A stretch of DNA of 64,000 bases from assembly GCA_965205505.1 (NCBI GenBank), contig CBDBHB010000008.1:1120001-1184000 (forward strand). The letters run 5' to 3'. The notes under the pieces were generated by a model that saw only the letters and a list, made by a program, of their open reading frames with translations, did not search any database and was not told where the DNA came from. The DNA is from Acidobacteriota bacterium (lineage in GTDB: Bacteria > Acidobacteriota > UBA890 > WLXD01). A program made the translations under genes and the position numbers. Positions 5,735 to 42,429 of this stretch are shown piece after piece (within the stretch, counting starts at the first letter, position 1; every line of letters begins with the position of its first letter).

Positions 5735-5784
5735 GAGCGGCTACGAGGTACTGCCTCCCTGTCCGCGCAGACTGCTGCTGGGGC

Positions 5785-19703: not shown

Positions 19704-19850
19704 GAGGTCATCGACGCCGCCCTGGCGTGGGCCCGTGAGGACGACACGAAGGGGTTGTACCCTCGCCTCTACGGCAAGTTCCCCCGCGTATTGGGATACT
19801 AGTGCTCCTGATCATGACCTCGCTGCCGGCGCAGGTTCTGCGGCGGCGAG
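19704..19850 (+). pseudogene. Mosaic remnant: sulfatase fragment joined to D-aminoacylase fragments
   Basis: 19704..19747 matches 6488..6531 (41/44); 19748..~19805 resembles 47112.. and 19814..19844 resembles 47214..47244. Confidence 0.7.
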
Positions 19851-19894
19851 ACAACTTCATAGTGATCACAAGTTGGCTCACCGGAGCGGGTTCC

Positions 19895-21964
19895 ATGGCC
19901 AAATATCACGTTGTCCTAGCAAGGCAAGCTAGCTCCTTCGCCGCAATCATGCTGTTGGCAGGCCTTTCTTACGCCGGCGGGCAGCTCTCCCCGACCGAAA
20001 GCCAGATCCTGAGCGCTCTGGATACCGACAGGACAATCGCCCTCACCCGCCGTCTCTCGGAGGAACTCGTCAAGAACGACTCGGGTGCGGGTGCCGGCTC
20101 GGCCATCGCCGGCAGCGCCGATGAGCGCCTCTTGGCCGGCTTCATCGAAGCGGAGATGAAGCGGCTAGGTTTGGATGTTCGGCGGGAGAGCTTCCCCGTG
20201 CACGCCTATGACTACGGGGAAGTGTCGCTAATCGCCGCTGGGAAAAGGCTCCCTGCGATCACCCTGCACACCGCCGCCGGTACCTCGGGTGCAGCCGAGG
20301 GAGTGCCCTATTCGAAGGGCAACACCGCGGGCGGAGGGACACTGCGGACGAAGCTGGTAGACGCCGAGGATGGGTTTGCCTCGGACTATGCGAAGCTGGA
20401 CGAAGTGCGGGGCAAAGCGGTACTCGTGCGCCGGCCAGGATGGCCCAGCGGCTACGTGGTGATGGAAGCGGCACAGCGGGGAGCCTCCGCCATCCTGTTC
20501 TACGACTATGGCAATTACAGCGGTGACTCGCCGGAAGACGCGTTGCAGCAGATGACCCTCGCGTATCGTGACCCGATCCCTGCAGTGACGATCAGCAACC
20601 GCGATGCCGCATGGCTCAAGGAACGGCTTGCCGAGGGCGAGGTGATGATCGAGCTGGAGAACCGGGTCGATGTCGACTACGGCTTTTCCGAGAACGTCAT
20701 CGGCATGCTACGGGGCAGGGAGTTTCCGGACGAGTGGATCGTGGTCTCGGCACACCACGACCGCTGGTTCCAAGGAGCCCAGGATGACAGCGTTGGTGTG
20801 GCCGTCATGCTGGAGCTGGCCCGCGTGATCTCGGAAGGTTACCGACCGCGGCGCAGCTTCCTGTTCATTGCCTTTGGAAGCGAAGAAGTCGGAGGACTGT
20901 GGACCGAGTACGACTGGCTGGCGGGTTCCCATGCGTTCATCCGGGCGCACCCCGAAGTCACCTCGCGTCTGGCCTACGCCTACAACGTCGATGGCGCCGG
21001 GTGGTCGGGGCGTGAGGGCCGGGTGTATGCCACACTCGATCAGGTTGCCTTGCAGCGCGAATTGCTGGCGGAGCTCGATCTTCAGGATCGGGTGACGGTG
21101 CAACCGGGTGTGGCCCGATGGAACGACGCCTGGTCACTCGGAGGCGTCCGGGGCGGAGCGGTCTCATATCTCTCCTGGGAGGGTGAATACGGTCGTTACT
21201 ACCACACAGAGCACGACGTCTACCGTGCCGACGACTACACAAACCTGATCGACGACCTGCGGCTCGGAGCACTCGGCGTGCTTCGGGTCGATCAGTCGGT
21301 CGTTTTGCCAATTCGTTTCTCGGACGTCGCCGACTGGGTTTCCGGGCAACTCCGGAGCATGGAGGGAATACTCTCCGACGTTGCCGGGGGGTCGGAGCTG
21401 CTCCGCGAGGCTCAGAAGGGAGCCGACATTCTACGTACGCAGGCCGACAAAGCAGAGGCGGCCTATTCGTCGATAGGTGATGCCGCTGATGCAACGTTGC
21501 TGAACGCCTTGCTGATGAACACTCGCCACGACCTCGTTCCTTGGCTACTCAACACAGAAGAGCGCCTGCGAGGAAGCCGCTACGCGGAAGACTTCGCCGC
21601 TCTCCAGAGGGCTCGTCTTGCTGCTGCAGCAGGGGATACGGAGGCAACGGCGAGGGCACTCGAGGAGGTCAACACGATGCAGTGGGGCAAGCGGGTCTCA
21701 ACGGCGACCTACCGCGCAGAAAGACTGCTCTCGTACGAGCCGATCGGTTGGATGCGGGAGTTTGACCAGCACCCGCGTCCGGTCAGTCCGGAACTCCACG
21801 CTATCTACTCGCAGCTCAGGGAGGGCGGCGGTAGTTCACGTCTGGCCTCCAGGATCGCCAGGCTCAAGGCGCAGGCGGAGGGCTCGCTGCGCGAGGCGCT
21901 GTTCATAGTAGGCGGCAAACTCCGGGAAGCCGCAAGCAAGCTTGCCGAGGCACAGCTGCCCTGA
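19895..21964 (+). CDS. Secreted PA-domain M28 family peptidase, paralog 1
   Basis: SAHHD, GAQDDSVG, GSEE, YYHTEHD; PA domain VRGKAVLVRR. Confidence 0.88.
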   Translation: MAKYHVVLARQASSFAAIMLLAGLSYAGGQLSPTESQILSALDTDRTIALTRRLSEELVKNDSGAGAGSAIAGSADERLLAGFIEAEMKRLGLDVRRESFPVHAYDYGEVSLIAAGKRLPAITLHTAAGTSGAAEGVPYSKGNTAGGGTLRTKLVDAEDGFASDYAKLDEVRGKAVLVRRPGWPSGYVVMEAAQRGASAILFYDYGNYSGDSPEDALQQMTLAYRDPIPAVTISNRDAAWLKERLAEGEVMIELENRVDVDYGFSENVIGMLRGREFPDEWIVVSAHHDRWFQGAQDDSVGVAVMLELARVISEGYRPRRSFLFIAFGSEEVGGLWTEYDWLAGSHAFIRAHPEVTSRLAYAYNVDGAGWSGREGRVYATLDQVALQRELLAELDLQDRVTVQPGVARWNDAWSLGGVRGGAVSYLSWEGEYGRYYHTEHDVYRADDYTNLIDDLRLGALGVLRVDQSVVLPIRFSDVADWVSGQLRSMEGILSDVAGGSELLREAQKGADILRTQADKAEAAYSSIGDAADATLLNALLMNTRHDLVPWLLNTEERLRGSRYAEDFAALQRARLAAAAGDTEATARALEEVNTMQWGKRVSTATYRAERLLSYEPIGWMREFDQHPRPVSPELHAIYSQLREGGGSSRLASRIARLKAQAEGSLREALFIVGGKLREAASKLAEAQLP

Positions 21965-22057
21965 GCACTCATCCCCCAGCTTCAGGCTCTTTCTCCTACA
22001 ACCTGTACGTTCGCAGGCGCCTTCCCGCCATCCGGTCGCCTATCTGCGCGGAGAGAA

Positions 22058-23050
22058 ATGATGACCATCCCGAGAGGCAAGGGCCTGATCGCGCTGCTAC
22101 TCCTGTTCTTGGTCGCGGTGGCCGTGGTTGTGGCCGTGCCGCAGCGTTACATGATCAGGTACCAGGCCTGGGACCCCGCCGAGGCCCCGCCGCTCCTCGA
22201 CCAGGTGGACGAGGGGCCCGGAGTGCGCTGGCACGACGACTACTTCACTGTTCAAGCCCTCGATGCGCGCACCTTCGCCATTGGCGAGCCGCGCTATTAC
22301 CAGCAGAACTACAACTACCTGCTCCTGGGAACCGAGCGCGCCGTGTTGTTCGACGCCGGCCCCGGCGTTCGCGACATCCGACCGGTCGCGCAGGCGCTCA
22401 CCGATCTCCCCTTGACCTTCGTGCCTTCCCATTTCCACGTCGACCACGTAGGCAACGAGATCACCTTCGAGCACGTGGCGGTGATCGATCTTCCCTACTT
22501 GCGTGCTCGCGCGCCCGACAACCGTCTGCAGCTCACGGACCGCGAGCACGTGGGATTCCACGAGGGCATTGCCCCGCCCACTCTCGAGGTCGACGAGTGG
22601 ATCTCGGCCGGAGGCACCATGCAGCTGGGCGACCGCGCGCTGCGAGTCCTCTACACGCCCGGCCACACGGAAGACTCGATCTCGCTTCTCGACGTGGGTT
22701 CCGGCCAGCTGTTCTCAGGCGATTTCATTTATCCCGGACCGCTGTACGCGTATATGCCGAACAGCGGCATGGGCGACTACGTGCAGGCCGCTGACACGGT
22801 GCTGAGCTCCGCTCCGGCAGGCGTCCGCATCTTCGGCGCGCACCGGGGCGGGCAGCCCGGAGCGCCACGGCTGACCCTGGCCGATGTGCAGGAACTCAGA
22901 GCCGCGCTGGACGCGATACGAAGCGGAGAACTCTCGGGCGAGGGGTTCTACCCGGTCCGGTACCGGATCAACTCGCGGCTGCGCCTACTCGCGGACCCCT
23001 GGTGGTTGCAGAACTGGACGCCACGCCGCCCGTCGTTGGCAGGTCGCTGA
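22058..23050 (+). CDS. Metallo-beta-lactamase-fold hydrolase, membrane-anchored or secreted
   Basis: SHFHVDH, TPGHT, LFSGD, GAH; N-terminal hydrophobic segment. Confidence 0.88.
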   Translation: MMTIPRGKGLIALLLLFLVAVAVVVAVPQRYMIRYQAWDPAEAPPLLDQVDEGPGVRWHDDYFTVQALDARTFAIGEPRYYQQNYNYLLLGTERAVLFDAGPGVRDIRPVAQALTDLPLTFVPSHFHVDHVGNEITFEHVAVIDLPYLRARAPDNRLQLTDREHVGFHEGIAPPTLEVDEWISAGGTMQLGDRALRVLYTPGHTEDSISLLDVGSGQLFSGDFIYPGPLYAYMPNSGMGDYVQAADTVLSSAPAGVRIFGAHRGGQPGAPRLTLADVQELRAALDAIRSGELSGEGFYPVRYRINSRLRLLADPWWLQNWTPRRPSLAGR

Positions 23051-23118
23051 TGCCGCGGATCAGCGCCGGCATCCTGCTCTACCGGCGCGGCCAAGTAAGC
23101 CTGGAGGTTCTCATAGTG
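23050..23118 (+). pseudogene. N-terminal remnant of a NUDIX hydrolase, in frame with the downstream M28 peptidase
   Basis: MPRISAGILLYRRGQVSLEVLIV resembles the SAGILLYR...LEVLLVHPGGP start of a NUDIX family; TGATG coupling to the MBL gene stop. Confidence 0.55.
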
Positions 23119-23148
23119 ATCGCAAGATGGCTCACCGGAGCGGGTTCC

Positions 23149-25221
23149 ATGGTCAAGTATCACGTTGTCCTGACAAGGCAAGCTAGCTTCTTTGCCGCCA
23201 TCATGCTGTTGGCAGGCCTTTCTCAGGCCGGCGCGCAGCTCTCCTCGACCGAAAGCCAGATCCTGAGCGCTCTGGATAGCGACAGGACCATCGCCCTCAC
23301 CCGCCGTCTCTCGGAGGAGCTCGTCAAGAACGACTCGGGTGCGGGTGCCGGCTCGGCCATCGCCGGCAGCGCCGATGAGCGCCTCTTGGCCGGCTTCATC
23401 GAGGCGGAGATGACGCGGATGGGTCTGGAGGTGCGGCGCGAGAGCTTTCCCGTGCACGCCTACGACTACGGCAAAGTACTGCTGCGGGCATCGGGCAGAC
23501 AGCTGGCAGCGATCACCCAGCACTCCGGCGGCGGGACCTGGGGCACTGCCGAGCGCGTGCCGTATACGAAGGGCAACACGTCGGGTGGACAGCGGTTGCA
23601 AGCGGCCTTGCTCGATGCCGGAGAAGGCTGGGTCCATGACTACGCTGATCTGAGCGAGGTGCGCGGCAAGGCCGTGCTGGTGCGCCGTGGAGCGGATTGG
23701 CTCAACAGCCAGGTCGTGATGGAGGCGGCAGAGCAGGGAGCGTCCGCGATCTTGCTCTACGACTACGACAGCGGTGCCGAGGCTCCCCAGGACTCGATCC
23801 AGCAGATGAGCATCGTCTACCGCGACCCGATCCCGACCGTGACGATCAGCAACCGCGATGCCGCATGGCTCAAGGAGCGCCTTGCCGACGGCGAGGTGAC
23901 GATCGAGCTGGAGAACCGGGTCGATGTCGACTACGGCTTCTCGGAGAACGTCATCGGCATGATCCGGGGCACGGAGTATCCGGACGAGTGGATCGTGGTC
24001 TCGGCCCACCACGACCGCTGGTTCCAAGGAGCCCAAGATGACAGCGTCGGAGTGGCCGTCGTGCTGGAACTGGCCCGCGTCATCTCGGAGGGTTACCGGC
24101 CGCGGCGCAGCTTCTTGTTCATTACCTTTGGCAGCGAGGAAGTCGGGGGGCTGTGGACCCAGTTCGACTGGCTGGCGGGCTCCCACGCGTTCATCCGGGC
24201 GCACCCCGAGATCACGTCGCGACTGGCCTATGCCTTCAACGTCGACCTCGCTGGATGGAGGGGGCGCGAGGGCCAGGTGCGTGCCACCCTCGACCAGGTT
24301 GCCTTCCAACGTGAATTGCTGGCCGACCTCGGCCTCGACGAGCGGGTAACGGTGCGTGAGCACGTCAGCACCGGCGTCGATGCCTGGTCTTTGGGAGGGG
24401 TTCGGGGCGGAGCGGTGGCAACCCTGAGCTGGACGGGTGACGTCCCCTACAGCCGCTACTACCACACGCAGCACGATGTCTATCGAGCCGAGGACTACGC
24501 CAACCTGGAGCACGACCTGCGACACGGGGCACTCGGCGTGCTGCGGATGGACCAGGCTGTCGTCCTGCCCGTCGGCTTCTCGGAGATCGCCGACTGGGTC
24601 ACCGAACAGCTCGACAGGATCGAGCAGACGGTCTCCTCGCTCTCGACACCGACGGACCTGCTTCGCGACGCCAGACAGGCGGCAGAGCGCCTTCGCGCGC
24701 AGGCTGAAAGGCTGGCAGCGACCTCAGCGTCCGTGGAGGATGGCAATCACGCAGCGGTCGTCAACGCGCTCTTGATGAGGACCCGACACGATCTCGTTCC
24801 CTGGCTTCTGAGCACAGAAGGACGCCTGAGAGGAAGCCGTTACGCGGAAGATTTCGCTGCACTCCAGAGAGCCCGTCTCGCTGCCACGGATGAAGATACG
24901 GAGGCTGCGGCGAGCGCGCTCGAGGATGTCAACACGATGCTGTGGGGCAAGCGGGTCTCGCCCGAGACCTACCGTGCTGAGAGGCTGCTGTCCTACGAGC
25001 CGACCGGTTGGATGTGGGAGTTCGACCAGCACCCACGTCCGGTCGGTCCGGAGCTGCACACCATCTACTCGCAGCTCGGGGCGGGACGCGGCGCCGCTTC
25101 GGTCGCCGGGATCGGCAGGCTCGAGGCGCAGGCGGAGGGCTCGCTGCGTGAGGCATTGTTCATCGTCAACGGTAAGCTCCGGGAAGCTGCGAGGGCCCTT
25201 GCCGATGGTCCTCCACCGTGA
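23149..25221 (+). CDS. Secreted PA-domain M28 family peptidase, paralog 2
   Basis: Same motifs as 19895..21964, with long identical blocks. Confidence 0.88.
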   Translation: MVKYHVVLTRQASFFAAIMLLAGLSQAGAQLSSTESQILSALDSDRTIALTRRLSEELVKNDSGAGAGSAIAGSADERLLAGFIEAEMTRMGLEVRRESFPVHAYDYGKVLLRASGRQLAAITQHSGGGTWGTAERVPYTKGNTSGGQRLQAALLDAGEGWVHDYADLSEVRGKAVLVRRGADWLNSQVVMEAAEQGASAILLYDYDSGAEAPQDSIQQMSIVYRDPIPTVTISNRDAAWLKERLADGEVTIELENRVDVDYGFSENVIGMIRGTEYPDEWIVVSAHHDRWFQGAQDDSVGVAVVLELARVISEGYRPRRSFLFITFGSEEVGGLWTQFDWLAGSHAFIRAHPEITSRLAYAFNVDLAGWRGREGQVRATLDQVAFQRELLADLGLDERVTVREHVSTGVDAWSLGGVRGGAVATLSWTGDVPYSRYYHTQHDVYRAEDYANLEHDLRHGALGVLRMDQAVVLPVGFSEIADWVTEQLDRIEQTVSSLSTPTDLLRDARQAAERLRAQAERLAATSASVEDGNHAAVVNALLMRTRHDLVPWLLSTEGRLRGSRYAEDFAALQRARLAATDEDTEAAASALEDVNTMLWGKRVSPETYRAERLLSYEPTGWMWEFDQHPRPVGPELHTIYSQLGAGRGAASVAGIGRLEAQAEGSLREALFIVNGKLREAARALADGPPP

Positions 25222-25385
25222 GTACCGGCCCCTCTAATCGGAAGAGTCGGTTAGCTCCCTACTGTTAAACCGCGTCCGGTCGTGATACGCTTAAGCTAGA
25301 CTTCCGACGGCAACGAAGCCCGAATTCGGAGTACGTGGTCGGAAGCTCCTGGCACGCTCCGTTTCCCGCCGATCGAGGAGAGCCC

Positions 25386-26768
25386 ATGAGCCCCAGGAAA
25401 GGCGAGGGCAAGAAAGACGGCATGAGCCGCCGCGACTTCGCCAAGACCTCCGCTGCCGTGGGTGCCGCTGCAGTCACGCTCCCGAAAGAGCTACGTGCCG
25501 CGACGGCCTTGGGGAAAAGACGCCAGAGCTCTCCGAACGGCTGGACAGCGGGCACGACAATTCCGGCGGAATACTACGTCGACGAGCGGCAATACGTCGC
25601 GGATGAGCGTTCGCTCGCCGAGAGCCTCTGGCTCTACGTCGACCACGAAAGCCGCATCCGCGAGCCGGGCGACTACTTCGTTTTCGAGTACGGGCGCGCC
25701 GAGAGCGTCATCGTGCTACGTGACACGGCGGGAGAGGTCAGGGCGTTCTACAACGTCTGCCGGCATCGAGGATCACGTCTGTGCCGGCACGACGGCGATC
25801 CGATTCCGGGCGATCCTCGCCTGTCCGTCCGCCAACTCGGCGAGAGCGGCAGCACACCGGTGTTTCGCTGCCCGTACCACGCCTGGACCTATGACATCGA
25901 CGGCAACCTGATCTATGCCTACGGCATGCAGGACGACTTCGACCCGGTGGACAACGGCCTGGTCCCGTGTCACGTGCGAACGGCGGAGGGCAGCATCTTC
26001 GTCAGCCTGTCGCGGCAGAACGAGCCACCGGACTTCGAGTCCGCTGTCTCACAGCTACGGATCATGGGGCATTACTACGGACATGCAGGCCTGAAGATCG
26101 CCGCGCGGGAGAGCCACCCGATCCATGCCAACTGGAAGCTGGTGCTGGAGAACTTCTCGGAGTGCTATCACTGCGGGCCAACCCACAAGGGATTGACCAC
26201 GACCCACAACTACGACTACGACGCCACGCCCGAGCAGCTGGCGGCGCGCAACGCTGCGGTAGCCGAATGGCTGACACCGGCGGGCAGGATACGGCCCGAG
26301 GCCCCCGAGGGGGGGCCGCGGTTGACCGGCAACCTCAACCCCGGCTTCGTCACGGGCTCTCCCGACGGCAAGTCGGTGGCACCGCTGCTTCCCAACATCG
26401 AGCAGCCGACTCACGGCACCAACGAGGCCTACACGGGCCACTACACCGGCTACTGGCAATCCTACGACGACTATGTTGTCGCGATCCGGTTCACGCCTCG
26501 AGATGTCGAGCTCACCGAAGCTGAGATCATCTGGTTGGTGCACCCGGACGCCGTGGAGGGGAGAGACTACGATCTGGCGACCCTCAAGGCCTTCTGGCAG
26601 GTCATCCTGCAGGAAGACATCTGGGTCATCGGCAACAACCACAGGGGCATTCTCTCGGGCGCCTATCGTTCAGGCCCGTACTCTACCCACGAAAACACCA
26701 CGGCCGAGTTCATCAAGTGGTACATGGCGGAGGTCGTAACGACCGGAGAGCGTCCAGACCCGGCATAG
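25386..26768 (+). CDS. Rieske non-heme iron oxygenase alpha subunit (GbcA/choline monooxygenase-like) with Tat leader, copy 1
   Basis: SRRDFAK; NVCRHRG...CPYHAWTY; NWKLVLENFSECYHC..TH; QEDIW. Confidence 0.9.
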   Translation: MSPRKGEGKKDGMSRRDFAKTSAAVGAAAVTLPKELRAATALGKRRQSSPNGWTAGTTIPAEYYVDERQYVADERSLAESLWLYVDHESRIREPGDYFVFEYGRAESVIVLRDTAGEVRAFYNVCRHRGSRLCRHDGDPIPGDPRLSVRQLGESGSTPVFRCPYHAWTYDIDGNLIYAYGMQDDFDPVDNGLVPCHVRTAEGSIFVSLSRQNEPPDFESAVSQLRIMGHYYGHAGLKIAARESHPIHANWKLVLENFSECYHCGPTHKGLTTTHNYDYDATPEQLAARNAAVAEWLTPAGRIRPEAPEGGPRLTGNLNPGFVTGSPDGKSVAPLLPNIEQPTHGTNEAYTGHYTGYWQSYDDYVVAIRFTPRDVELTEAEIIWLVHPDAVEGRDYDLATLKAFWQVILQEDIWVIGNNHRGILSGAYRSGPYSTHENTTAEFIKWYMAEVVTTGERPDPA

Positions 26769-26817
26769 GTTGCCAGCTCCTACAGAGTTCACCGGCCGAA
26801 AGAGCTTGGAGGGCGGG

Positions 26818-28143
26818 ATGAGCAAGAACGAGGAAGCCACCACGTCGACCCGGCGTGACCTGGCGCGCAGCGCCGTTATCGGGTACACGGCCGCCGCCCT
26901 CGGGCTACCGAGGAACCTGCTTGCCCGGGCGATTCCGGATACGGGCCAGATGGGCGACGGGGAATCCGGCCCTGCGGGGTGGGTCCGAGACACAATTGGA
27001 GCCGAGTACTACACGGACGAAGCGCGCTACCTGGTCGATGAGCGCCTGGTGGCCGACCATTTCTGGCAAATGGTCGACCACGAGAGCAGGATCCCCAATG
27101 CGGGCGACTTCTTCGTGTTCGAGTACGGTCGCAGCGAGAGCATTCTGATCGTTCGCGGGCGGGACAACGAAGTGCGCGGCTTTTACAACGTGTGCCGCCA
27201 CCGCGGCTCGCGCCTGTGCCGTCACGATGCGGATCCGATCCCTGAGGATCCACGCCTGTCGGTCAAGCAGCTCGGACAGTCCGGTAGCTCACCGGTGTTC
27301 CGCTGCCCGTACCACGCCTGGACGTACGACACCGAAGGCAGCCTGATCTATGCCTATGGCATGCAGGAAGACTTCGACCCGGCGGACAACGGCCTCATCC
27401 CCTGCCACCTCCGCACGGCAGACGGCTTCATCTTCGTGAACCTGTCGCGAGAGCCGGAGCCGCCGGAGTTCGAGTCAGCGATCGAGCCCTTCCGCCGCAA
27501 GGTGGGTCAATCACACGGCACCGCAGACTTGAAGGTCGGCGAGCGCGTCTACGTCGCGATGCGCGCCAACTGGAAGCTGGCGCTGGAGAACTTCCTGGAG
27601 TGCTACCACTGCGGGCCGTCGCACGACTACCTGTGCTACGTGTTCCCGAACATCGACCTCTCGATCCCGGAATCTCAAAGGCCTGCGCGAGGGATGCCTG
27701 CGGGCTTCGTCAGCGCCACCCTCGACGGCAAGCCGGCGGCACCGTTGCTGCCCGCCTTCGAGAGCAGAACCGGCAGGAAGGTGGGAAGCGACGCGGCAAC
27801 AGGGTGGTCGACCGGGTACTGGTCTCCCAACGAAGACTACGTCTTCGCAGTTCGATTCACCCCCCGTGATGTTGACCTCACCGACGTGGAGTGCACCTGG
27901 CTCGTGCACCCGGATGCGAAGCGAGGAGTGGATTACGACCCGGAGAGGCTGAAGGAGATCTGGTTCGTCACGCTCCTGGAGGACATCTGGTTGTGCGAGA
28001 ACAACCACATTGGCATACGCTCGGGCGCCTACCGGCCCGGGCGCTACGCCACCCATGAGATTGGCCGGATATTGCCGGCTAATTTCATGCACTGGTACGT
28101 GAACGCCGTGGCGGGCAACGTCGGGCGGGTGATGGCGTACTGA
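26818..28143 (+). CDS. Rieske oxygenase alpha subunit with Tat-like leader, copy 2
   Basis: TRRDLAR; CRH...CPYH; ENFLECYHCGPSH; LEDIW. Confidence 0.9.
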   Translation: MSKNEEATTSTRRDLARSAVIGYTAAALGLPRNLLARAIPDTGQMGDGESGPAGWVRDTIGAEYYTDEARYLVDERLVADHFWQMVDHESRIPNAGDFFVFEYGRSESILIVRGRDNEVRGFYNVCRHRGSRLCRHDADPIPEDPRLSVKQLGQSGSSPVFRCPYHAWTYDTEGSLIYAYGMQEDFDPADNGLIPCHLRTADGFIFVNLSREPEPPEFESAIEPFRRKVGQSHGTADLKVGERVYVAMRANWKLALENFLECYHCGPSHDYLCYVFPNIDLSIPESQRPARGMPAGFVSATLDGKPAAPLLPAFESRTGRKVGSDAATGWSTGYWSPNEDYVFAVRFTPRDVDLTDVECTWLVHPDAKRGVDYDPERLKEIWFVTLLEDIWLCENNHIGIRSGAYRPGRYATHEIGRILPANFMHWYVNAVAGNVGRVMAY

Positions 28144-28155
28144 CGAGCTTGGAGG

Positions 28156-29544
28156 ATGGGGATGAGCAAGAAAGAGGAAGGCAACAAATCGACCCGGCGT
28201 GACTTGGCGCGTAGCGCTGTTGTCGGCTACACCGCCGCCGCCCTCGGGCTGCCAACGCACCTGCTTGCCAGGGACGTTCCGGATGTGGGCCAGATGGCCG
28301 GCGGGGAATCGGGCGCAGCAGGGTTGCGAAGAGCCACGATTGACGCCGAGTACTACACGGACGGAGAGCGCTGGGCGTTCGATGAGCGCCTGGTGGCCGA
28401 CCATTTCTGGCAAATGGTCGACCATGAGAGCAGGATTCCCGATGCGGGCGACTTCTTCGTGTTCGAGTTCGGTCGCAGCGAGAGCATCCTGATCGTGCGT
28501 GGGCGGGACAACGCAGTGCGCGGCTTCTACAACGTGTGCCGCCACCGCGGCTCGCGCCTGTGTCGTCACGACGCAGATCCGATCCCCGAGGATCCACGCC
28601 TGTCGGTCAAGCAGCTCAGCCAGTCGGGCAGCTCGCCGGTGTTCCGCTGCCCGTACCACGCCTGGACGTACGACACCGAAGGCAGCTTGATCTATGCCTA
28701 CGGCATGCAGGAGGACTTCGATCCGGCGGACAACGGCCTGATCCCCTGCCACCTCCGCACGGCAGACGGCTTCATCTTCGTGAACCTGTCGCGCGAGCCG
28801 GAACCGCCGGAGTTCGAGTCAGCGGTCGAGCCCTTCCGCCGCGATGTGGGCGGACCCCACGGGACCGCACAATTGAAGGTCGGCGAGCGAGTCTTCGTGC
28901 CGATGCACGCCAACTGGAAGCTGGCGCTGGAGAACTTCCTGGAGTGCTACCACTGCGGGCCGTCGCACGACTACCTGTGCTACGTGTACCCGGGCTCTGA
29001 CTTCACGACCGAATCCGAGAAGCAAGGGAAGGGTGGGCTGCTCAACGGATTCGTCACCGGCACAATGGACGGCAAAGCGGCGGCACCGTTGCTGCCCGCC
29101 TTTGAGGGCACCGACGCGAGGACGACGTCACGCACGTCGACCGAAACGACGTCGGGTTGGTCGACCGGATATTGGCTCGGATACGACGATCACGTCTTCG
29201 CGGTTCGATTCACCCCCCGTGATGTCGATCTCACCGACGTGGAATGCACCTGGCTCGTGCATCCGGATGCGAAGCGCGGCGTGGACTACGATCCGGAGAG
29301 GTTGAAGGAGGTGTGGCTCGTCACGCTTCTAGAAGACATCTGGTTGTGCGAGAACAACCACGCCGGCATTTGCTCTGGCGCCTACGCGCCTGGCCGCTAC
29401 GCCACTCATGAGCGTAGCCCGTCCAGATTCATACAGTGGTATATGGCCGCCGTGGCGGGTGACATCGGGCCGGCGCAGAACCCACGTCGCCGTGAGAGTC
29501 CGACTGCGCGCCTCGAGGGTCCAGAGAGTACGTTGCTGACCTGA
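28156..29544 (+). CDS. Rieske oxygenase alpha subunit with Tat-like leader, copy 3
   Basis: TRRDLAR; Rieske domain near-identical to copy 2. Confidence 0.9.
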   Translation: MGMSKKEEGNKSTRRDLARSAVVGYTAAALGLPTHLLARDVPDVGQMAGGESGAAGLRRATIDAEYYTDGERWAFDERLVADHFWQMVDHESRIPDAGDFFVFEFGRSESILIVRGRDNAVRGFYNVCRHRGSRLCRHDADPIPEDPRLSVKQLSQSGSSPVFRCPYHAWTYDTEGSLIYAYGMQEDFDPADNGLIPCHLRTADGFIFVNLSREPEPPEFESAVEPFRRDVGGPHGTAQLKVGERVFVPMHANWKLALENFLECYHCGPSHDYLCYVYPGSDFTTESEKQGKGGLLNGFVTGTMDGKAAAPLLPAFEGTDARTTSRTSTETTSGWSTGYWLGYDDHVFAVRFTPRDVDLTDVECTWLVHPDAKRGVDYDPERLKEVWLVTLLEDIWLCENNHAGICSGAYAPGRYATHERSPSRFIQWYMAAVAGDIGPAQNPRRRESPTARLEGPESTLLT

Positions 29545-29611
29545 ATCTGCGAGTTGCTGCTGCAGGCAACGACAGCCGGCAACGAGCGAGCTCCGCCTAC
29601 CCGACGTGCAT

Positions 29612-31540
29612 ATGAGAGATCGGGATCTTCAGCTGGGAATGTGCCGGGAGATCACCCGTCGCGATTTCGTCTCCGGTATCAGCGTAGCGCTGAGCGGCAG
29701 CCTGGCGCTGCCGTGGGCGCAGACGGACGCCCTGGCGAGCCCCGGGTCTTCGGGGCGGAGCCCGCAGGCCATGGCGGCCGCGTATCCACCGATCCGGACC
29801 GGCATGCGCGGCAGTCACGAAGGCTCCTACGAGGTTGCTCATCAGCTTCGAGATGGCGTGCGCTGGTACAATCCGGAGGAGACCGGTGAGCTCTACGACC
29901 TGATCGTGGTCGGTGGCGGCATCAGTGGCCTCGCATCGGCATGGTTTTTCAGAGAAGCCGTTCCCGGGGCGCGCATCCTGATTCTCGACAACCACGACGA
30001 CTTCGGCGGTCATGCCAAGCGCAACGAGTTCTGGCACGAAGGTCAGATGGAGCTGTCGCATGGCGGCACCATCTTCATCTCCAACTTACACCGGTACAGT
30101 GCGGCAGCCCAGCGCCTGATCCGCGGGATCGGCATCGACGTGAGCCGCTACTCCGAGTTCCTCGATGAGGACCTGTACAGCTCGCTCGGTATGCGCGGGT
30201 CGGTCTTCTTCGACCGCGAAACCTTCGGCACCGATCGGCTGCTGACGGGCGAAGGCAAGCCCTCCTGGCGCGAGTTTCTGGCGCACGCACCCTTGTCCGA
30301 GGCGGCCCGTGAGGACCTTGTACGACTACACGAATCGGACGTCGATTATCTGGCGCACCTCAGCTTGGAGGAGAAGGTCGAGTACCTTCAGCACACGAGC
30401 TACGAAGACTTTCTCTTGCAGGCAGTCAAGATCAGCCCGGAGGCGGTCTCCTTCCTCGAGACGTCCAACGGCTGGGCGATCGGCATCGATGCCATCTCAG
30501 CCTGGACCGGCGCCGGCAGCCGGCCCGGAACCACCGGGCTCGGATTCGGTAACAACGATGAGGGCGCCGAAACCACCGAGGAGCGGGCGTTCTTTCAGTT
30601 CCCGGATGGCAACTCTTCCGTCGCGCGCCTGCTCGTCCGGTCGCTGATCCCCGACGTCGCTCCAGGCACCACGATGGAGGATGTCGTCGCGGCCAGATTC
30701 GACTACGGCAAGCTCGATCGGGAAGACTCGCCCGTGCGCGTGCGTCTGGAGAGCACGGCGGTGCGGGTGGGCCACCGTGGCGACCCGCAGACCGCCGAAG
30801 AAGTCGAGGTCACCTACGTCCGCCACGGCCGCGCCCAACGAGTTCGCGCCGGCCGCTGTGTGCTTGCCTGCTACAACGCGGTCATTCCTCACATTTGCGA
30901 CGAGCTGCCGGATACGCAAGAGCATGCGCTATCGAACGCTCTCAAGGCGCCCCTTATCTACACCAATGTCCTGATCCGCAACTGGACCGCCTTCCAGAAG
31001 CTCGGCACGCACGAGGTGCGCTGCCCGGGCAGTTATTTCGACAATGTAAATCTGACGCCGCCGATCAGCATTGGAGGCTACCGACATGCGCGCACGCCCG
31101 ACGAGCCCACCGTGGTGCGCATGTGGCGCGCCCCCCTGGTGCCCGAGGCCCGCGGGCGGTCCGCGGCGGAGCAATGGAAGGCCGCCCGCCGGAGCCTGGT
31201 GACGACGACGTTCGAGACCTTCGAGCGCAAGATCAGGGATCAGCTCGGCCGCATACTCTCCGCCGGTGGCTTCGACCCGGCGCGCGATATCGAGGCGATC
31301 ACTGTGAACCGCTGGCCGCACGGTTATGCCTACGGCCACGATCTGGAGACCGGCCAGATCGCATGGAGGCTCGATGAGATACCGCCCGAGCGCTCTTCGT
31401 GGATCGTTGCCCGCCAGCCTGTCGGCCGCATCGCCATCGCCAACTCGGACGCGATGGCCGACGCAATGACCGAAGGTGCGATCGGCGCGGCGCATCTGGC
31501 CGTCGAGGCGCTCGTTGCCCCCGAGACAACGCCATTGTGA
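29612..31540 (+). CDS. Tat-exported FAD-dependent oxidoreductase, spermidine dehydrogenase (SpdH)-like, copy 1
   Basis: ITRRDFVSG; YPPIRTGMRGSH; VVGGGISGL; DNHDDFGGHAKRNEF; FPDGN; ITVNRWPHGYAY; IAIANSD. Confidence 0.85.
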   Translation: MRDRDLQLGMCREITRRDFVSGISVALSGSLALPWAQTDALASPGSSGRSPQAMAAAYPPIRTGMRGSHEGSYEVAHQLRDGVRWYNPEETGELYDLIVVGGGISGLASAWFFREAVPGARILILDNHDDFGGHAKRNEFWHEGQMELSHGGTIFISNLHRYSAAAQRLIRGIGIDVSRYSEFLDEDLYSSLGMRGSVFFDRETFGTDRLLTGEGKPSWREFLAHAPLSEAAREDLVRLHESDVDYLAHLSLEEKVEYLQHTSYEDFLLQAVKISPEAVSFLETSNGWAIGIDAISAWTGAGSRPGTTGLGFGNNDEGAETTEERAFFQFPDGNSSVARLLVRSLIPDVAPGTTMEDVVAARFDYGKLDREDSPVRVRLESTAVRVGHRGDPQTAEEVEVTYVRHGRAQRVRAGRCVLACYNAVIPHICDELPDTQEHALSNALKAPLIYTNVLIRNWTAFQKLGTHEVRCPGSYFDNVNLTPPISIGGYRHARTPDEPTVVRMWRAPLVPEARGRSAAEQWKAARRSLVTTTFETFERKIRDQLGRILSAGGFDPARDIEAITVNRWPHGYAYGHDLETGQIAWRLDEIPPERSSWIVARQPVGRIAIANSDAMADAMTEGAIGAAHLAVEALVAPETTPL

Positions 31541-31568
31541 TCACGGGCTGGCTCACCCCCCGCGTAGG

Positions 31569-31880
31569 CTACCGCTGGTAGACAATCTCGCCACCGAGGA
31601 TTGTGGCATCGACCCCGACGTCGAACATCTCCGCGCCCTGCAACTGCGTCGGGTCTGCCGACAGCACTGCGAAGTCCCCGAGCTTACCCACCGCAATCGA
31701 GCCCTTCTCGCGCTCCTCGAAGCCAGCGCGGGCCGCCCAGATAGTGTGCATCCGCAGGGCGTCCTCGAAGCCGAGCTCCTCGCCCGGCGGCGTGCCGCCG
31801 CCGTCCTCCGGCGAGGCCATCAACGAGGCGATTGCCCCATGGGACTGAACACCGGCACCGTGCCGGTGGCGTCCGAGATC
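31569..31880 (-). pseudogene. 3' remnant of an amidohydrolase paralogous to 13415..15067
   Basis: DATGTVP (frameshift)...EDALRMHTIWAARAGFEEREKGSIAVGKLGDFAVL...ATILGGEIVYQR; no 5' part. Confidence 0.8.
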
Positions 31881-32006
31881 GCCTACGGATCATTCCATAT
31901 CTTGGTCATGCGCTCCACCTCGTCGCTCTCATTCATGGGTAACCGTGGGCGGATCGAACCTTGTCGCGGGATCCCGGGCCGATCCTCACGCCGATCGAAC
32001 TGCCAG

Positions 32007-32159: not shown

Positions 32160-32168
32160 AGGTAGACA

Positions 32169-33980
32169 ATGGCAGGCGGATCGATGACGGAAACCAGGCC
32201 CCGTCTGTTGATCGCTCTGCTGGCGAGCCTGAGCGTATCGGCTTGTCAGCCGTCAGCGCAGGACGCGTCGCCAGGCGATGCTGGCGGTCCTGCCGATTTG
32301 GTCTTGCGCGGCGGTAAGTTTTTTACCCTCGACGAAGCCCAGGTCTGGGCGGAAGCCGTCGCGATCCAGGACGGCAGGTTCGTCTACGTCGGCGACGACG
32401 CTGGTGTACAGAGCTTCGTTGGCCCCGATACCGATCGCCATGATCTCAGCGGCAGGCTGACGATTCCCGGTCTGGTGGATTCCCATACACACCCGGGCCT
32501 GATGGGGCGGGAGTCGGCCGGGTACATCGCCGTCCCCGTGGGTGGTGGTCCGAGAGGGAGTCTGCCCAGGCGCGGGAACAACGAGGAGGTCGTCGCCGCG
32601 GTGCAGGCGTATGCCCAGGCCAACCCGGACCTTGCCTGGATCGAGATGGGTAGCTGGTCCGGGCATGTCTACGGCAAAGCGGGCCCACACAGGAGAGATT
32701 TGGATCGCGTCGTACCGGATCGACCGGTGATGCTGGGGGACGACACCGGCCATAGCGTTTGGGTCAATTCCGTGGCGCTCGAGTTGATGGGGGTCGACAG
32801 GAACACACCCGATCCGGTACCCGGTCTTTCGATGTTCGTACGGGATGCCGATGGGGAGCCCACCGGCTGGATCAAGGAGTTCGCCGCCTGGCCCTATGCG
32901 CGGCCCATTGCTGCTGAAGTCGACGCGGAGTCCAACAAGGAAGGTATCGCCACCTTCTTGGAGTACCTGTCACGTCTCGGCGTTACCACACTCTTGGACG
33001 CTGGCAACTTCAACTACCACGATCTCACGTACTCGCTGGTGGCTGAGCTAGAGGCGGCCGGTCGTCTGCCGGTTCGCTACGAGGCCAGCTATCACATCAT
33101 CTTGCCCGATCAGGTGCCCGGTGCGATCGATGAGCTACAGCGGCTGCGGCGCGCCTACGGCGGCGAACGTCTGACGTTCAACACCATCAAGATTCACTTC
33201 GACGGCACCGACGAGCTTCGTACCGGAGCGGTGCTCGAGCCTTTCAGCGACGACCCGGGCAACCGGGGCACTACGCTGCTCGACACCGAGGAGATGAGTG
33301 ATTTCATCGTCCGGCTTCACGAAGCCAGGATCGATCTGCACTTGCACATCATGGCCGACCGGGGCGTTCGCATCGCGCTGGATGCCGTGGAGGAAGCGCA
33401 GAGGTCGATCGACGGCGACCTCTATCCGCGCGTCACCATCTGCCACCTGGACATCATCGATACGGCTGACTACCCCCGTTTCAAACAGCTGGGTGTCATT
33501 GCCAACTACACGCCTCAATGGCACGGCCTGGGAGACCGACTGCCGTTGACCGCCACTACCCTTGGCGACCGCTTCGAGAGGATGCTGCTGGTCCAGCCGT
33601 TACTGGATGACGGCGCGGTCGTGACCTTCTCCAGCGACGTGACATCGCTGCGGGGCATGGAGCGGGCCAACCCGTATCTGGGGATGCAGATCGGCCACAA
33701 CCGCCAATATCACGAACAAGGTGATGCCGCGCCGATCAGGCTGCCGATGACCGAACGCCTGGACCTGGAGGACTTGATCAAGGGATACACGTCGAGCGGC
33801 GCCTATCAGCTCCGTATGGAGGACCAGCTCGGCTCGATCGAGGTGGGCAAGCTCGCCGATCTGGTCGTGCTCGATCGGAACGTGTTCGAAGTGGACCGTT
33901 ACGAGATCCACACGGTGCGACCCGAAGCGGTCTTCATGGAGGGCGAGATCATTAGCGGAAGCTCAGATGCGTGGAGATAA
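32169..33980 (+). CDS. Amidohydrolase (Amidohydro_3/YtcJ-like) lipoprotein
   Basis: Lipobox VSAC; PGLVDSHTH; IKIHFDG; GSIEVGKLADLVVLD. Confidence 0.9.
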   Translation: MAGGSMTETRPRLLIALLASLSVSACQPSAQDASPGDAGGPADLVLRGGKFFTLDEAQVWAEAVAIQDGRFVYVGDDAGVQSFVGPDTDRHDLSGRLTIPGLVDSHTHPGLMGRESAGYIAVPVGGGPRGSLPRRGNNEEVVAAVQAYAQANPDLAWIEMGSWSGHVYGKAGPHRRDLDRVVPDRPVMLGDDTGHSVWVNSVALELMGVDRNTPDPVPGLSMFVRDADGEPTGWIKEFAAWPYARPIAAEVDAESNKEGIATFLEYLSRLGVTTLLDAGNFNYHDLTYSLVAELEAAGRLPVRYEASYHIILPDQVPGAIDELQRLRRAYGGERLTFNTIKIHFDGTDELRTGAVLEPFSDDPGNRGTTLLDTEEMSDFIVRLHEARIDLHLHIMADRGVRIALDAVEEAQRSIDGDLYPRVTICHLDIIDTADYPRFKQLGVIANYTPQWHGLGDRLPLTATTLGDRFERMLLVQPLLDDGAVVTFSSDVTSLRGMERANPYLGMQIGHNRQYHEQGDAAPIRLPMTERLDLEDLIKGYTSSGAYQLRMEDQLGSIEVGKLADLVVLDRNVFEVDRYEIHTVRPEAVFMEGEIISGSSDAWR

Positions 33981-36120
33981 TCCCGGGATGAACCGATCCA
34001 AGCTTGGCGCCGCGGCCATCGCCGCTGTTGTCGCGGTGACGGTCCTCGGCTTCGTGTTTCAGGAAGTCTCGCTGGGCGGCACCCTGCGGCGCCAGGAGAC
34101 AGCTGCCGAGGGCATCGGCAGCGTCGACGGTGCCCGCATCGCTCGGGCCGACGAGGAACCGGGGAACTGGTTCACCGGCGGCCGTACGTTCTCCGAGCAA
34201 CGGTTCTCGCCGTTGGTCCAGATCCACCAGGACAACGTAGGCGCGCTCGGCTTCGCCTGGGAATACGACCTGCGGACCAAGCGGCCGCTCGAGGCCTCGC
34301 CGGTCGTCATCGACGGTGTCCTGTACGCCAGCAGCCCCTGGGGCCGCGTTGACGCCCTGGACGCGGCGACGGGTGAGGAGCTCTGGAGCTACGATCCGCA
34401 GGTGCCCGGCAGCTGGGCTCGCAAGGCGTGTTGTGGCGTGGTCAACCGCGGCTTGGCGGCCTGGAAGGGCTCCATATACGTCGCTTCCCTCGACGGTCGG
34501 CTCGTCCGACTGGACGCCCGCACAGGTGAGCCGCTTTGGGAGCAGGATACGCTGATCGATCGGGACCGTGACTACACCATCACCAGCGCCCCTCGCGTCG
34601 TGCGGGATCGCGTCGTCATCGGCAACAGCGGCGCCGAGTACGGGGTGCGCGGCTACGTCACCGCTTACGACGTCGAGTCGGGCGAGCTGGCGTGGCGCTT
34701 CTATACCGTACCGGGCGATCCCGACCTGCCCTTCGAGCATCCCGAGATGGAGATGGCGGCGGCCACTTGGGACCCCGACTCGCTGTGGGAGTTCGGTGGC
34801 GGCGGCACCGTATGGGGCGACATGGCCTACGACCCCGAGCTGAACTTGCTGTACGTGGGAACGGGGAACGCCTCGCCTTACCCCGTGGCGACCAGGAGCC
34901 CGGCCGGCGGGGACAACCTGTTTCTCGCATCGATTCTGGCCATCAACCCGGACACGGGTCGACTCGCGTGGCACTACCAGACGACGCCTGGAGAGAATTG
35001 GGACTACACGGCGACACAGAACCTGATTCTGGCCGACCTGGATATCGATGGGCGCCAGCGAAAGGTCATCATGCAGGCGCCGAAGAACGGTTTCTTCTAT
35101 GTGATCGACCGGCGCACCGGCGAGCTGATGTCAGCGGAACCGTACGTCACAGTGAACTGGGCCAGCCACGTGGATCTCGCCACCGGCCGTCCGGTACAGG
35201 TGCCGGCTGGCGACTATGCCGATGAACCGAAGACCGTCAGCCCCTCCTGGTGGGGTGGGCACAACTGGCATCCGATGGCGTTCAGTCCGACGACGGGGCT
35301 CGTGTACGTTCCGACGATCGAGTGGCCGACCACCTTCGAGCGCGTGCCCGACCCCGTCTACAGCCCGGGCCAGCAAATCACGGGAGTCAGGACCCAGGGT
35401 GGGTCGTTTCCCTACGACGCGCCCGTAGAGGATGAGCCCCACGCCCTCAAGGCCTGGGACCCGGTGGCCAACCGCGAGGTCTGGCGCGTGAGCTACCGGT
35501 TTCCCTACAACGGCGGCGTGCTGACCACAGCCGGCAACCTGGTGTTCCAGGGGACGGTCGACGGTCGACTGAAGGCCTATGCCGCCGACAGCGGGGCAGA
35601 GTTGCTGGACATCGAGGTCGGCACCAGCATCATGGCGGCGCCGGTGGCGTACCTCGTGGACGGTATCCAGCACATTGCGGTGCTGGCCGGCTACGGCGGT
35701 GGCTCGAGCGCCCGGGCGTTCCCGGAGGGCTCGGCGGCGATCGAGCGCGGCAATGCGGGGCGCATCATCGCGTTCAAGCTCGGCGGCGGGCCAGTGCCGC
35801 TGCCGCCGGTCGTTGATCCCCGCCCCGAAATCCCGCTACCGCCTCGCCCGGACGCTTCCCCTGAAACGCTCGCGGAGGGCCAGCAGCTCTACCGCCGCTA
35901 TTGCGCCGATTGCCATCGAATCGATGACCAGCCGACGATAGCGCCCAATCTGTTGCGCATGGACGCCGCCGCTCACGACGGGTTCGAGAGAATTGTTGTC
36001 GAGGGGCTCCTCGAAGCCAACGGCATGCCCGACTTCGGCCAGGATCTCACCGCAGACGAGGTCGAGGCCATTCACGCGTTTCTTGTCGAGACTGCCCACG
36101 AGGTACGCGGCGCCGACTGA
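33967..36120 (+). CDS. Quinohemoprotein (type II PQQ-dependent) alcohol dehydrogenase with C-terminal cytochrome c
   Basis: ACCGVVNRG, GAEYGVRGY, WDYTA, QAPKNGFFYV, GGHNWHPM; C-terminal CADCH...MP. Confidence 0.92.
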   Translation: MRGDNPGMNRSKLGAAAIAAVVAVTVLGFVFQEVSLGGTLRRQETAAEGIGSVDGARIARADEEPGNWFTGGRTFSEQRFSPLVQIHQDNVGALGFAWEYDLRTKRPLEASPVVIDGVLYASSPWGRVDALDAATGEELWSYDPQVPGSWARKACCGVVNRGLAAWKGSIYVASLDGRLVRLDARTGEPLWEQDTLIDRDRDYTITSAPRVVRDRVVIGNSGAEYGVRGYVTAYDVESGELAWRFYTVPGDPDLPFEHPEMEMAAATWDPDSLWEFGGGGTVWGDMAYDPELNLLYVGTGNASPYPVATRSPAGGDNLFLASILAINPDTGRLAWHYQTTPGENWDYTATQNLILADLDIDGRQRKVIMQAPKNGFFYVIDRRTGELMSAEPYVTVNWASHVDLATGRPVQVPAGDYADEPKTVSPSWWGGHNWHPMAFSPTTGLVYVPTIEWPTTFERVPDPVYSPGQQITGVRTQGGSFPYDAPVEDEPHALKAWDPVANREVWRVSYRFPYNGGVLTTAGNLVFQGTVDGRLKAYAADSGAELLDIEVGTSIMAAPVAYLVDGIQHIAVLAGYGGGSSARAFPEGSAAIERGNAGRIIAFKLGGGPVPLPPVVDPRPEIPLPPRPDASPETLAEGQQLYRRYCADCHRIDDQPTIAPNLLRMDAAAHDGFERIVVEGLLEANGMPDFGQDLTADEVEAIHAFLVETAHEVRGAD

Positions 36121-42057: not shown

Positions 42058-42070
42058 TGCACCTCCTCCT

Positions 42071-42106
42071 GGGCAACGCCATCGCCCTGGGGCAACGCCA
42101 TCGCCC
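42071..42106. repeat. 17-bp direct repeat (period 19) just upstream of the TBDR2 RBS
   Basis: GGGCAACGCCATCGCCC at 42071 and 42090. Confidence 0.75.
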
Positions 42107-42429
42107 GAAATAAACGCAGCTGACCTTCTGGTGGGTAATAGCACCGCACCGACGCCGCTGTCAACGGAGTCGGGGTCCCACATCCCACGATAACCACCTG
42201 TACCTGAACGTCGGCCACGGTGGTTTCGAGGGTTGACCAACCATCAGGCTGCTGCCAACGTAGCCGGGCTCGAAGCTGCGAAGCCGACGATCAGAGCGAA
42301 CGCCCTCGGGAATCGAACGTGGGCAAGGAAGGGATCGAACCACGGCAAGGAGGCGAGGGATGATGACCTGACCCCCCAAAACGGATCCAGAGGTAATCTC
42401 ACGATCTGGGTCGAAAAGGGGAGGTCAGA

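Follow-up and report, generated by a model that had tools for sequence, protein, structure and literature searches.

Candidate periplasmic Rieske oxygenases with twin-arginine leaders in an acidobacterial genome and their heme-protein neighbours

RESULTS

Two loci join Rieske oxygenase genes to SpdH-like genes

The window studied here is a 64,000-nucleotide stretch of an Acidobacteriota genome that is 96% complete (NCBI GenBank assembly GCA_965205505.1, contig CBDBHB010000008.1, positions 1,120,001 to 1,184,000). It holds four genes for Rieske oxygenase alpha subunits, named R1–R4, and two genes for SpdH-like flavoproteins, F1 and F2. An initial annotation made from the sequence had proposed these six genes, each beginning with a twin-arginine (RR) motif, and had placed an SpdH-like gene directly after the last Rieske gene at both loci; the six positions, all on the plus strand, the motifs and the R3–F1 and R4–F2 pairs were confirmed (Table 1). 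The genes are tightly spaced, with gaps of 49 nt between R1 and R2, 12 nt between R2 and R3, ∼60 nt between R3 and F1, and 10 nt between R4 and F2. GGAG-type ribosome sites precede R1, R2, R3 and F2, that of F2 (GAGGAG) sitting within the 3' end of R4. F1 starts at GTG 29606, with an ATG at 29612, and an alternative ATG start at 28162 is possible for R3.

Table 1. Positions of the Rieske and SpdH-like genes, their predicted leaders and neighbouring genes in the window
Feature	Coordinates	Strand	Basis or remarks
R1, Rieske oxygenase alpha subunit with Tat-type leader, 460 aa	25386..26768	+	Pfam Rieske + Ring_hydroxyl_A
R1 predicted Tat signal peptide, ∼38 codons	25386..25499	+	S-R-R-D-F-A-K, Ala-rich h-region, Pro, basic c-region
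Insert of R1 that is specific to the clade, separating the CxH and CxxH ligand motifs of the Rieske domain (limits approximate)	25788..25841	+	34-residue spacer
R2, Rieske oxygenase alpha subunit with Tat-type leader, 441 aa	26818..28143	+	Pfam; T-R-R-D-L-A-R leader
R2 predicted leader	∼26818-26931	+	
R3, Rieske oxygenase alpha subunit with Tat-type leader, 462 aa	28156..29544	+	Pfam, AF2 model, Foldseek
R3 predicted leader	∼28156-28269	+	T-R-R-D-L-A-R
F1, SpdH-like FAD/heme b amine dehydrogenase with Tat-type leader, 644 aa	29606..31540	+	phmmer against solved SpdH
R4, Rieske oxygenase alpha subunit with Tat-type leader, 513 aa, 42-residue Rieske spacer	47626..49167	+	Pfam
R4 predicted leader	∼47626-47751	+	S-R-R-D-F-A-K
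F2, SpdH-like flavocytochrome with Tat-type leader, 653 aa	49178..51139	+	NAD_binding_8 domain
Metallo-beta-lactamase-fold gene between two paralogous M28/PA-domain peptidase genes; the block is immediately upstream of R1	19802..25221	+	Pfam
Secreted amidohydrolase (Amidohydro_3), recurrent neighbour family	32169..33980	+	Pfam
Quinohemoprotein PQQ dehydrogenase with C-terminal cytochrome c domain	33967..36120	+	Pfam PQQ + Cytochrome_CBB3
TonB-dependent-receptor-like outer membrane protein with carboxypeptidase-regulatory domain, recurrent neighbour family	39169..42240	-	Pfam

R1–R4 resemble quaternary-amine monooxygenases

The assignment of R1–R4 to the Rieske oxygenases was borne out by Pfam, since all four match both the Rieske family (PF00355) and Ring_hydroxyl_A (PF00848, E 1e-25 to 1e-29). 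Their closest solved relatives are Stc2 (PDB 3vca/4qup) and 3n0q, with E ∼1e-53, followed by CntA. The alignment of R1 to these solved enzymes begins only at about residue 55, indicating that the window proteins carry an N-terminal extension. GbcA (NCBIfam NF058607) is the best curated family, but the scores of 218–231 bits (231 for R1) compare with a cut-off of 670, and R1–R4 are therefore not GbcA. In alignments of 20 and 43 sequences the Rieske ligands C125/H127/C162/H165 (R1 numbering) are invariant, as is the iron-site pair H262/H267, and E410-D411 is almost so; the carboxylate iron ligand is tentatively named from the alignment to Stc2. Since the Rieske ligands and the histidine pair are invariant, R1–R4 look like working oxygenases.

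An AlphaFold2 (AF2) model of R3 had a predicted local distance difference test (pLDDT) score of 74.9, and its top Foldseek matches were 3n0q, Stc2 and CntA, with template modelling (TM) scores of 0.65–0.76. Residues 1–60 and the insert fell below a pLDDT of 50, so that the position of the insert relative to the cluster cannot be read from the model. These best fold matches are alpha3 enzymes. The initial annotation had recognised no beta subunit in the window, and a search with PF00866 gave no match anywhere in the genome; an alpha3-type assembly with no beta subunit would be the best reading of these comparisons.

Stc2, GbcA and CntA (PDB 6y8j) are homotrimeric quaternary-amine Rieske monooxygenases that share the two-domain architecture and the Rieske and iron ligands with R1–R4, at ∼30–32% identity over the aligned fold. 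They are leaderless and have a 17-residue Rieske spacer, whereas the window proteins have ∼40–100 residues of leader and linker and a spacer of 34–42 residues. The Rieske proteins of bc1/b6f complexes and of arsenite oxidase (AioB) likewise have a Rieske [2Fe-2S] domain that is Tat-exported and exchanges electrons with periplasmic cytochromes. Unlike R1–R4 with their full Ring_hydroxyl_A domain, these proteins are small high-potential carriers that lack an oxygenase domain. Export of the bc1 Rieske protein through twin-arginine translocation (Tat) is described (PMC6085387).

Two aberrant paralogs of the Tat clade (defined below) were encountered among the relatives. At locus L004 (∼10001-11449), the first Cys of the CxxH motif is replaced by Tyr (F-R-Y-P-Y-H), which may reflect a cluster-less copy or a sequencing error. 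On contig C7 of the window's genome (446159-447419), a paralog recovered as two tblastn pieces is split over two frames, the upstream frame beginning in the linker region, and is probably a pseudogene.

A Tat-type leader and a Rieske-loop insert define one clade

We refer to the long-spacer Rieske oxygenases on the branch of R1–R4 as the Tat clade and to their short-spacer relatives as conventional. An S/T-R-R-x-F/L motif, an h-region and a basic c-region can be read directly at the N-termini of R1–R4, F1 and F2, and none of the six genes has, past its annotated start and ahead of the RR motif, another in-frame start whose use would cost it the motif. The leader is kept in 111 of the 120 best R1 homologs (50–100% identity). 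Its consensus consists of a variable n-region, K-V/L-S-R-R-D/E-F-A-K, a 13-residue Ala/Gly-rich stretch (mean hydropathy 1.39), Pro plus a basic residue, and L-R-A/G; a variable Ala/Pro/Thr-rich linker follows, and the mature domain begins 38–91 residues past the RR motif. As judged from their N-termini, seven of the nine leaderless homologs are truncated calls and two (P0007 and P0023) start just before the mature domain. P0007, which is encoded at locus L002 and occurs on 12 contigs, may be a variant that stays in the cytoplasm, a subunit carried out together with a partner that has a leader, or the product of a decaying gene.

The relatives had been described as cytoplasmic, and this agrees with a comparison of 150 representatives of 50%-identity clusters, scored by a regular expression with a distance rule that excludes matches inside mature domains. 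None of the 119 conventional representatives (spacer 16–23 residues) had a leader, compared with 9 of 17 long-spacer representatives, the other eight being mostly fragments. For the tree and the adjacency counts we used 121 distinct genes from the window's genome and 108 loci, 51 with a long and 70 with a short spacer. The leader is present in 48/51 long-spacer genes versus 0/70 short-spacer genes, and all 51 long-spacer genes fall on one branch with an SH-like approximate likelihood ratio test (SH-aLRT) support of 100. R4 lies in a deep-branching subclade together with two further Rieske–SpdH copies on contig C9. The Rieske spacer measures 34–46 residues in the Tat clade against 16–19 in conventional relatives, corresponding to an insert of 17–29 residues in which several positions are invariant. 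Because leader and insert are tied to each other across the tree and the gene sets, we conclude from the sequences that they are linked derived characters of a monophyletic clade. The insert would alter the surface where redox partners dock.

The conservation of motif and features indicates that the leaders are genuine Tat-type signals, as had been proposed, and makes export of R1–R4 highly probable. The window's genome has two full tatC genes. The leaders of F1 and F2 align with the signal peptide of PA3713, a listed Tat substrate with experimental validation (PMC6085387). A further tat locus on contig C9 (∼2059125-2059777, minus strand; L109 5125-5777) consists of tatA (71 aa) and a tatC truncated after ∼131 residues, with unrelated DNA apparently standing where its remainder would be; the locus lies ∼500 bp downstream of a Rieske-SpdH-Rieske-SpdH cluster.

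Close relatives (E<=1e-90) were found in 7 of 301 genomes sampled from the phylum, the window's genome included: all five of the window's genus, none of six genomes from other genera of the family, and two elsewhere. The clade also occurs in a Binatia metagenome-assembled genome (MAG) and a Woeseia MAG. It is common in metagenomes, the 120 clusters among the matches listed all being at least 50% identical.

SpdH-like genes adjoin a part of the Tat clade

In phmmer searches, F1 aligned with the solved SpdH/PA3713 of Pseudomonas aeruginosa (PDB 7d9f/7d9i) along its full length (E ∼1e-148, residues 16–634), with the I-T-R-R-D-F leader and the FAD motif retained. NAD_binding_8/DAO domains were detected in F1 and F2. 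In SpdH, His54 and His562 are the ligands of a surface heme b, through which electrons pass from FAD to outside acceptors that include cytochrome c (PMC12564564). The corresponding H79 and H572 of F1 are invariant in 34 sequences, F2 among them. What sets the SpdH-like proteins apart from SpdH is their number and divergence: since the window's genome encodes 27 full-length paralogs, and F1 and F2 are only 47% identical, their substrates probably differ from that of SpdH and probably vary among the paralogs.

The initial annotation had suggested examining whether Tat leader and SpdH-like neighbour co-occur. A same-strand SpdH-like gene adjoins 12 of the 51 Tat-clade genes versus none of the 70 conventional genes, and this adjacency requires at least 7 changes on the Rieske tree and 8 on the SpdH tree. 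The linkage is thus enriched and of repeated origin, but most Tat-clade genes lack such a neighbour. An independent metagenome sample of 24 Tat-clade and 56 conventional loci gave 6 and 1, respectively. The R3–F1 pair is conserved in 4 genomes, and the window's genome has three pairs of the R4–F2 type, the F2 subclade pairing with the R4 subclade on the SpdH tree. In total, 17 Tat-clade genes of the window's genome are intact, and a further copy has a frameshift. Periplasmic oxidoreductases in general are greatly expanded in this genome, which, besides the Tat-clade and SpdH-like genes, has 62 matches to pyrroloquinoline quinone (PQQ) domains, several per gene. The SpdH literature examined does not mention a linkage to Rieske oxygenases.

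No reductase gene is linked to the Tat clade

A ferredoxin or reductase gene had not been recognised in the window, and PF00175 and PF00111 indeed gave no match there. A genome-wide search, proposed with GbcB-like reductases in mind, returned only two PF00175 matches, which on frame reading are Fpr-like and PyrK-like and which are both distant from Tat-Rieske genes. Thirteen Fer2 matches and two leaderless small Rieske ferredoxins are likewise encoded away from any Tat-Rieske gene. The same genome also carries a conventional leaderless short-spacer paralog (contig C8:682919-684172).

Consistent linkage to a conventional reductase would have been an argument against the proposed system. With a fused FNR/ferredoxin reductase as query, an adjacent reductase was found at 0 of 41 Tat-clade loci versus 20 of 67 conventional loci, reductases of the glutathione-reductase type not having been searched for; the metagenome sample gave 0/24 versus 2/56. 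Besides the dehydrogenase and cytochrome c genes described here, no recurrent redox neighbour of the Tat clade was found in 43 loci.

A monoheme cytochrome c is the commonest neighbour outside the genus

Outside the window's genus, seven loci of seven assemblies have a monoheme class I cytochrome c gene (PF13442) directly next to the Tat-Rieske gene. These cytochromes form one family, with 48–86% mutual identity. Four of the loci (L012, L017, L110 and L111) carry the cytochrome gene downstream in the same orientation, and in three (L036, L020 and L037) it is convergent. The family was found neither in the 67 conventional loci nor in the same-genus loci. In the metagenome sample, it adjoined 12 of 24 Tat-clade loci compared with 0 of 56 conventional loci (Fisher 4.5e-8, with no correction for kinship). 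Eight of the metagenome Tat-clade loci had neither partner, and four of these end <=420 bp from the Rieske gene. SpdH-like, Rieske and cytochrome c genes occur in one operon in L012, L111, L113 and L116. Outside the window's genus, this cytochrome c family is the commonest neighbour of Tat-clade genes.

The five or six copies of the family in the window's genome all lie on contig C9; one of them (∼3075004-3075567) comes immediately after an SpdH paralog, and another immediately precedes a PQQ dehydrogenase gene. A search for small CxxCH proteins within 5 kb of its Tat-Rieske genes yielded no small candidate; the hits were an unrelated 241-residue open reading frame and a CxxCH that occurs by chance within a Rieske paralog. 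At L012, in a Polarisedimenticolia MAG, a 656-residue cytochrome with 19 CxxCH motifs (3911-5881, minus strand) is divergent from the SpdH-Rieske-cytochrome c operon.

The quinohemoprotein that had been pointed out near R1–R4 is a PQQ propeller with a C-terminal cytochrome c domain, and the gene recurs near loci of the R3–F1 type in L001, L002 and L018. In ∼14 of 43 loci, a PQQ dehydrogenase gene is only a few genes away from a Rieske gene. The quinohemoprotein gene of the window accounts for just one of the 62 PQQ-domain matches, so its nearness may be due to chance; for the same reason the PQQ dehydrogenases were not counted as enriched or as a specific partner.

Gene fusions and a modelled complex were also considered. 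No fusion of a Tat-clade protein to an SpdH-like protein or cytochrome c was found, which is weak evidence; only two fused conventional relatives turned up, one with a reductase and the other with a transporter-like domain. A 1455–1556-residue open frame around the Rieske gene of G038 was rejected as a long GC-rich open frame: the true gene begins with its leader, and the cytochrome c gene that follows is a distinct one. The predicted complex of R3 (residues 55–440) with F1 (residues 55–640) scored 0.00, 'no answer', and is evidence neither way.

Surrounding genes and transcription

The neighbours of the two loci include secreted M28 peptidases, amidohydrolases, isochorismatase-like hydrolases, a TonB-type receptor and the quinohemoprotein dehydrogenase, a set that would fit the periplasmic breakdown of nitrogen-rich compounds. 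The two M28/PA-domain peptidase paralogs (19802-21964 and 23002-25221) have near-identical N-terminal regions and seem to have arisen by a recent tandem duplication. The two Rieske loci are separated by a stretch that includes an IS3-like transposase gene (42561-43589), of a family that recurs beside Tat-Rieske loci in the window's genome and its relatives. The transposase gene is followed by a gene for a 703-residue protein with no Pfam match (43624-45735), a relative of which adjoins a large SpdH/Rieske cluster on contig C9. Downstream of F2, an isochorismatase-family gene identified by Pfam (51778-52599, minus strand) encodes an N-terminal hydrophobic, signal-like stretch; an apparent paralog by sequence, also with a signal-like stretch, is found at 54423-55274 (plus strand), with an M28 peptidase gene between the two.

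A promoter and terminator scan of 25000-32300 gave chance-level results. Contigs from RNA libraries (4 runs, 2 studies) include near-identical short pieces on R1, one of them (25324-25524) over the leader; another piece starts in R1, crosses the spacer and ends 17 nt into R2, and further pieces match R2, R3 and F1. We regard these contigs as a weak hint, not as proof of transcription, and the parts left uncovered are uninformative.

DISCUSSION

We propose that R1–R4 would be Rieske non-heme-iron monooxygenases, forming a distinct clade of the Stc2/GbcA/CntA quaternary-amine group, that would be folded with their cofactors in the cytoplasm and then exported by Tat. In the periplasm they would act on nitrogen-rich compounds beside secreted peptidases, amidohydrolases and SpdH-like amine dehydrogenases; from these relationships we infer amine-type substrates for the clade. 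The two electrons needed per turnover would come from periplasmic heme proteins in place of an NAD(P)H reductase, the candidate donor in the window being the co-operonic SpdH-like flavocytochrome b (F1, F2), acting directly or via one of the genome's unlinked monoheme cytochromes c, of the family that adjoins Tat-Rieske genes in other lineages. Oxidation of one C–N bond would pay for the oxygenation of another substrate. A similar logic operates in the fungal pair of cellobiose dehydrogenase (CDH) and lytic polysaccharide monooxygenase (LPMO), where a secreted flavocytochrome b feeds single electrons from a surface heme to an oxygenase; the proteins are unrelated, the active centre is copper and the organisms differ, so that the likeness would be one of analogy only. 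SpdH has itself been compared with cellobiose dehydrogenase in respect of direct electron transfer (PMC12564564).

To the proposal of periplasmic Rieske monooxygenases fed by periplasmic heme proteins we assign, on the sequence comparisons above, a probability of about 0.5, and heme proteins as the electron donors seem to us an even bet. It is doubtful that F1 and F2 themselves donate directly. The initial annotation had favoured the flavoprotein as donor, and its linkage is real, but most Tat-clade genes lack an SpdH-like neighbour, the SpdH-like family is widespread on its own, and the comparisons point to a cytochrome c family that the window lacks as the commonest partner. A complete NAD(P)H-free chain, running from an SpdH-like or PQQ dehydrogenase to the Tat-Rieske oxygenase either directly or through a dedicated cytochrome c, is possible though short of probable; if it operates, the enlarged cluster loop may be an adaptation for docking and for tuning of the potential to high-potential donors.

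Several observations weigh against this proposal. The main objection is a gap in redox potential. The Rieske oxygenase clusters that have been studied are low in potential (∼-150 mV), and His/Met cytochromes c usually lie higher still than the heme b of SpdH. The latter is at ∼+0.06 V, converted from an onset of -0.14 V versus Ag/AgCl (PMC12564564). The cluster ligand motifs of the Tat clade look like ordinary oxygenase motifs. As to the partners, 39 of the 51 Tat-clade genes have no adjacent SpdH-like gene, and SpdH-like proteins with at least 60% identity are widespread in Gammaproteobacteria with no Rieske gene at all, indicating that they are not dedicated Rieske partners. Within the window's genus, no member of the cytochrome c family adjoins a Tat-Rieske gene, and elsewhere the family also adjoins PQQ and SpdH dehydrogenases, from which it would be expected to accept electrons; its nearness could therefore reflect a shared periplasmic respiratory neighbourhood. 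The leader of R1 scores below the cut-offs of Tat models, with 17.4 versus 22.7 bits for PF10518 (TAT_signal) and 16.6 versus 16.7 bits for TIGR01409, and with no match to either listed for R2–R4; at E<=0.05, PF10518 picks up just 12 of the 43 family members. In L002, from the same genus, an R1 ortholog (∼2280-3543, 79% identical) has lost the leader by an in-frame deletion with its frame intact. Finally, we know of no experiment on any member of the Tat clade.

Some of these points lend weight to other explanations. Oxygenase and SpdH-like dehydrogenase might merely be pathway neighbours that act in turn on imported amines, as GbcAB does before DgcAB/Sox, with the oxygenase drawing electrons from another, unlinked carrier while the dehydrogenases and cytochrome c simply feed respiration. 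The secreted hydrolases, TonB-type receptor and dehydrogenases around R1–R4 are what a catabolic locus would contain, and the many SpdH-like genes that stand apart from Rieske genes, the many Tat-clade genes that stand apart from SpdH-like genes, and the placing of the cytochrome c beside dehydrogenases as their expected acceptor all suit such an arrangement. It leaves the electron source unnamed, however, while the 43 loci offer no further recurrent redox neighbour, and many loci have Rieske and cytochrome c genes only, with no dehydrogenase in the available DNA (for example L110, L117 and L118). We consider it unlikely, if by no means negligible. Cytoplasmic retention, in which the RR leader would not work or would serve as a retained anchor and R1–R4 would be served by generic reductases and ferredoxins, could draw on the sub-threshold hidden Markov model scores, on the leaderless L002 ortholog, and on the Fpr-like reductase and two small leaderless Rieske ferredoxins of the window's genome. 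Yet the leader has all Tat features and keeps them across paralogs only 50% identical in their mature part, none of the 119 conventional representatives has it, the neighbours are all equipped with signal peptides, and an h-region of ∼13 residues is not long enough to act as a membrane anchor, which together render retention improbable.

Electrons might instead flow in reverse, the Rieske/iron protein handing them to cytochrome c in the manner of the arsenite oxidase Rieske subunit and not acting as a monooxygenase. A small cytochrome c is normally the acceptor in periplasmic gene pairs, as seen beside the PQQ and SpdH paralogs, and the potential gap argues against a cytochrome c reducing an ordinary oxygenase cluster. 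Since the full oxygenase catalytic domain, its iron ligands and the Stc2/CntA monooxygenase fold are conserved, and we know of no dehydrogenase in the Rieske oxygenase superfamily, we think that there is little chance of this. A peroxide shunt, in which periplasmic H2O2 would supply both oxygen and electrons and dispense with a protein donor, would be in keeping with the lack of a linked reductase, and H2O2-driven turnover is known for some Rieske oxygenases. It is very improbable nonetheless: the enriched cytochrome c linkage would be left unexplained, and SpdH is a dehydrogenase that reduces its heme and not O2 (PMC12564564).

The proposed heme-fed periplasmic monooxygenases would depart from what has been described for the superfamily. 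The literature searched (titles and abstract openings) yielded no description of an exported or Tat-dependent Rieske oxygenase. To our knowledge, the Rieske oxygenases characterised so far all work in the cytoplasm or in organelles and rely on a reductase chain linked to NAD(P)H. An exported, heme-linked clade, if true, would be the first class of Rieske oxygenases to draw on c- or b-type hemes beyond the cytoplasm and a bacterial counterpart of the fungal CDH–LPMO pair. It would widen the site of Rieske chemistry to substrates that never enter the cell, with oxygenation powered by substrate oxidation and not by nicotinamide cofactors, and would change the view of how low a Rieske potential must be for O2 activation. 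For biocatalysis and biosensing it would offer reductase-free pairs of oxygenase and dehydrogenase, SpdH being able to transfer electrons directly to electrodes (PMC12564564). It would also account for the large periplasmic oxidative gene repertoire of the window's acidobacterial genus.

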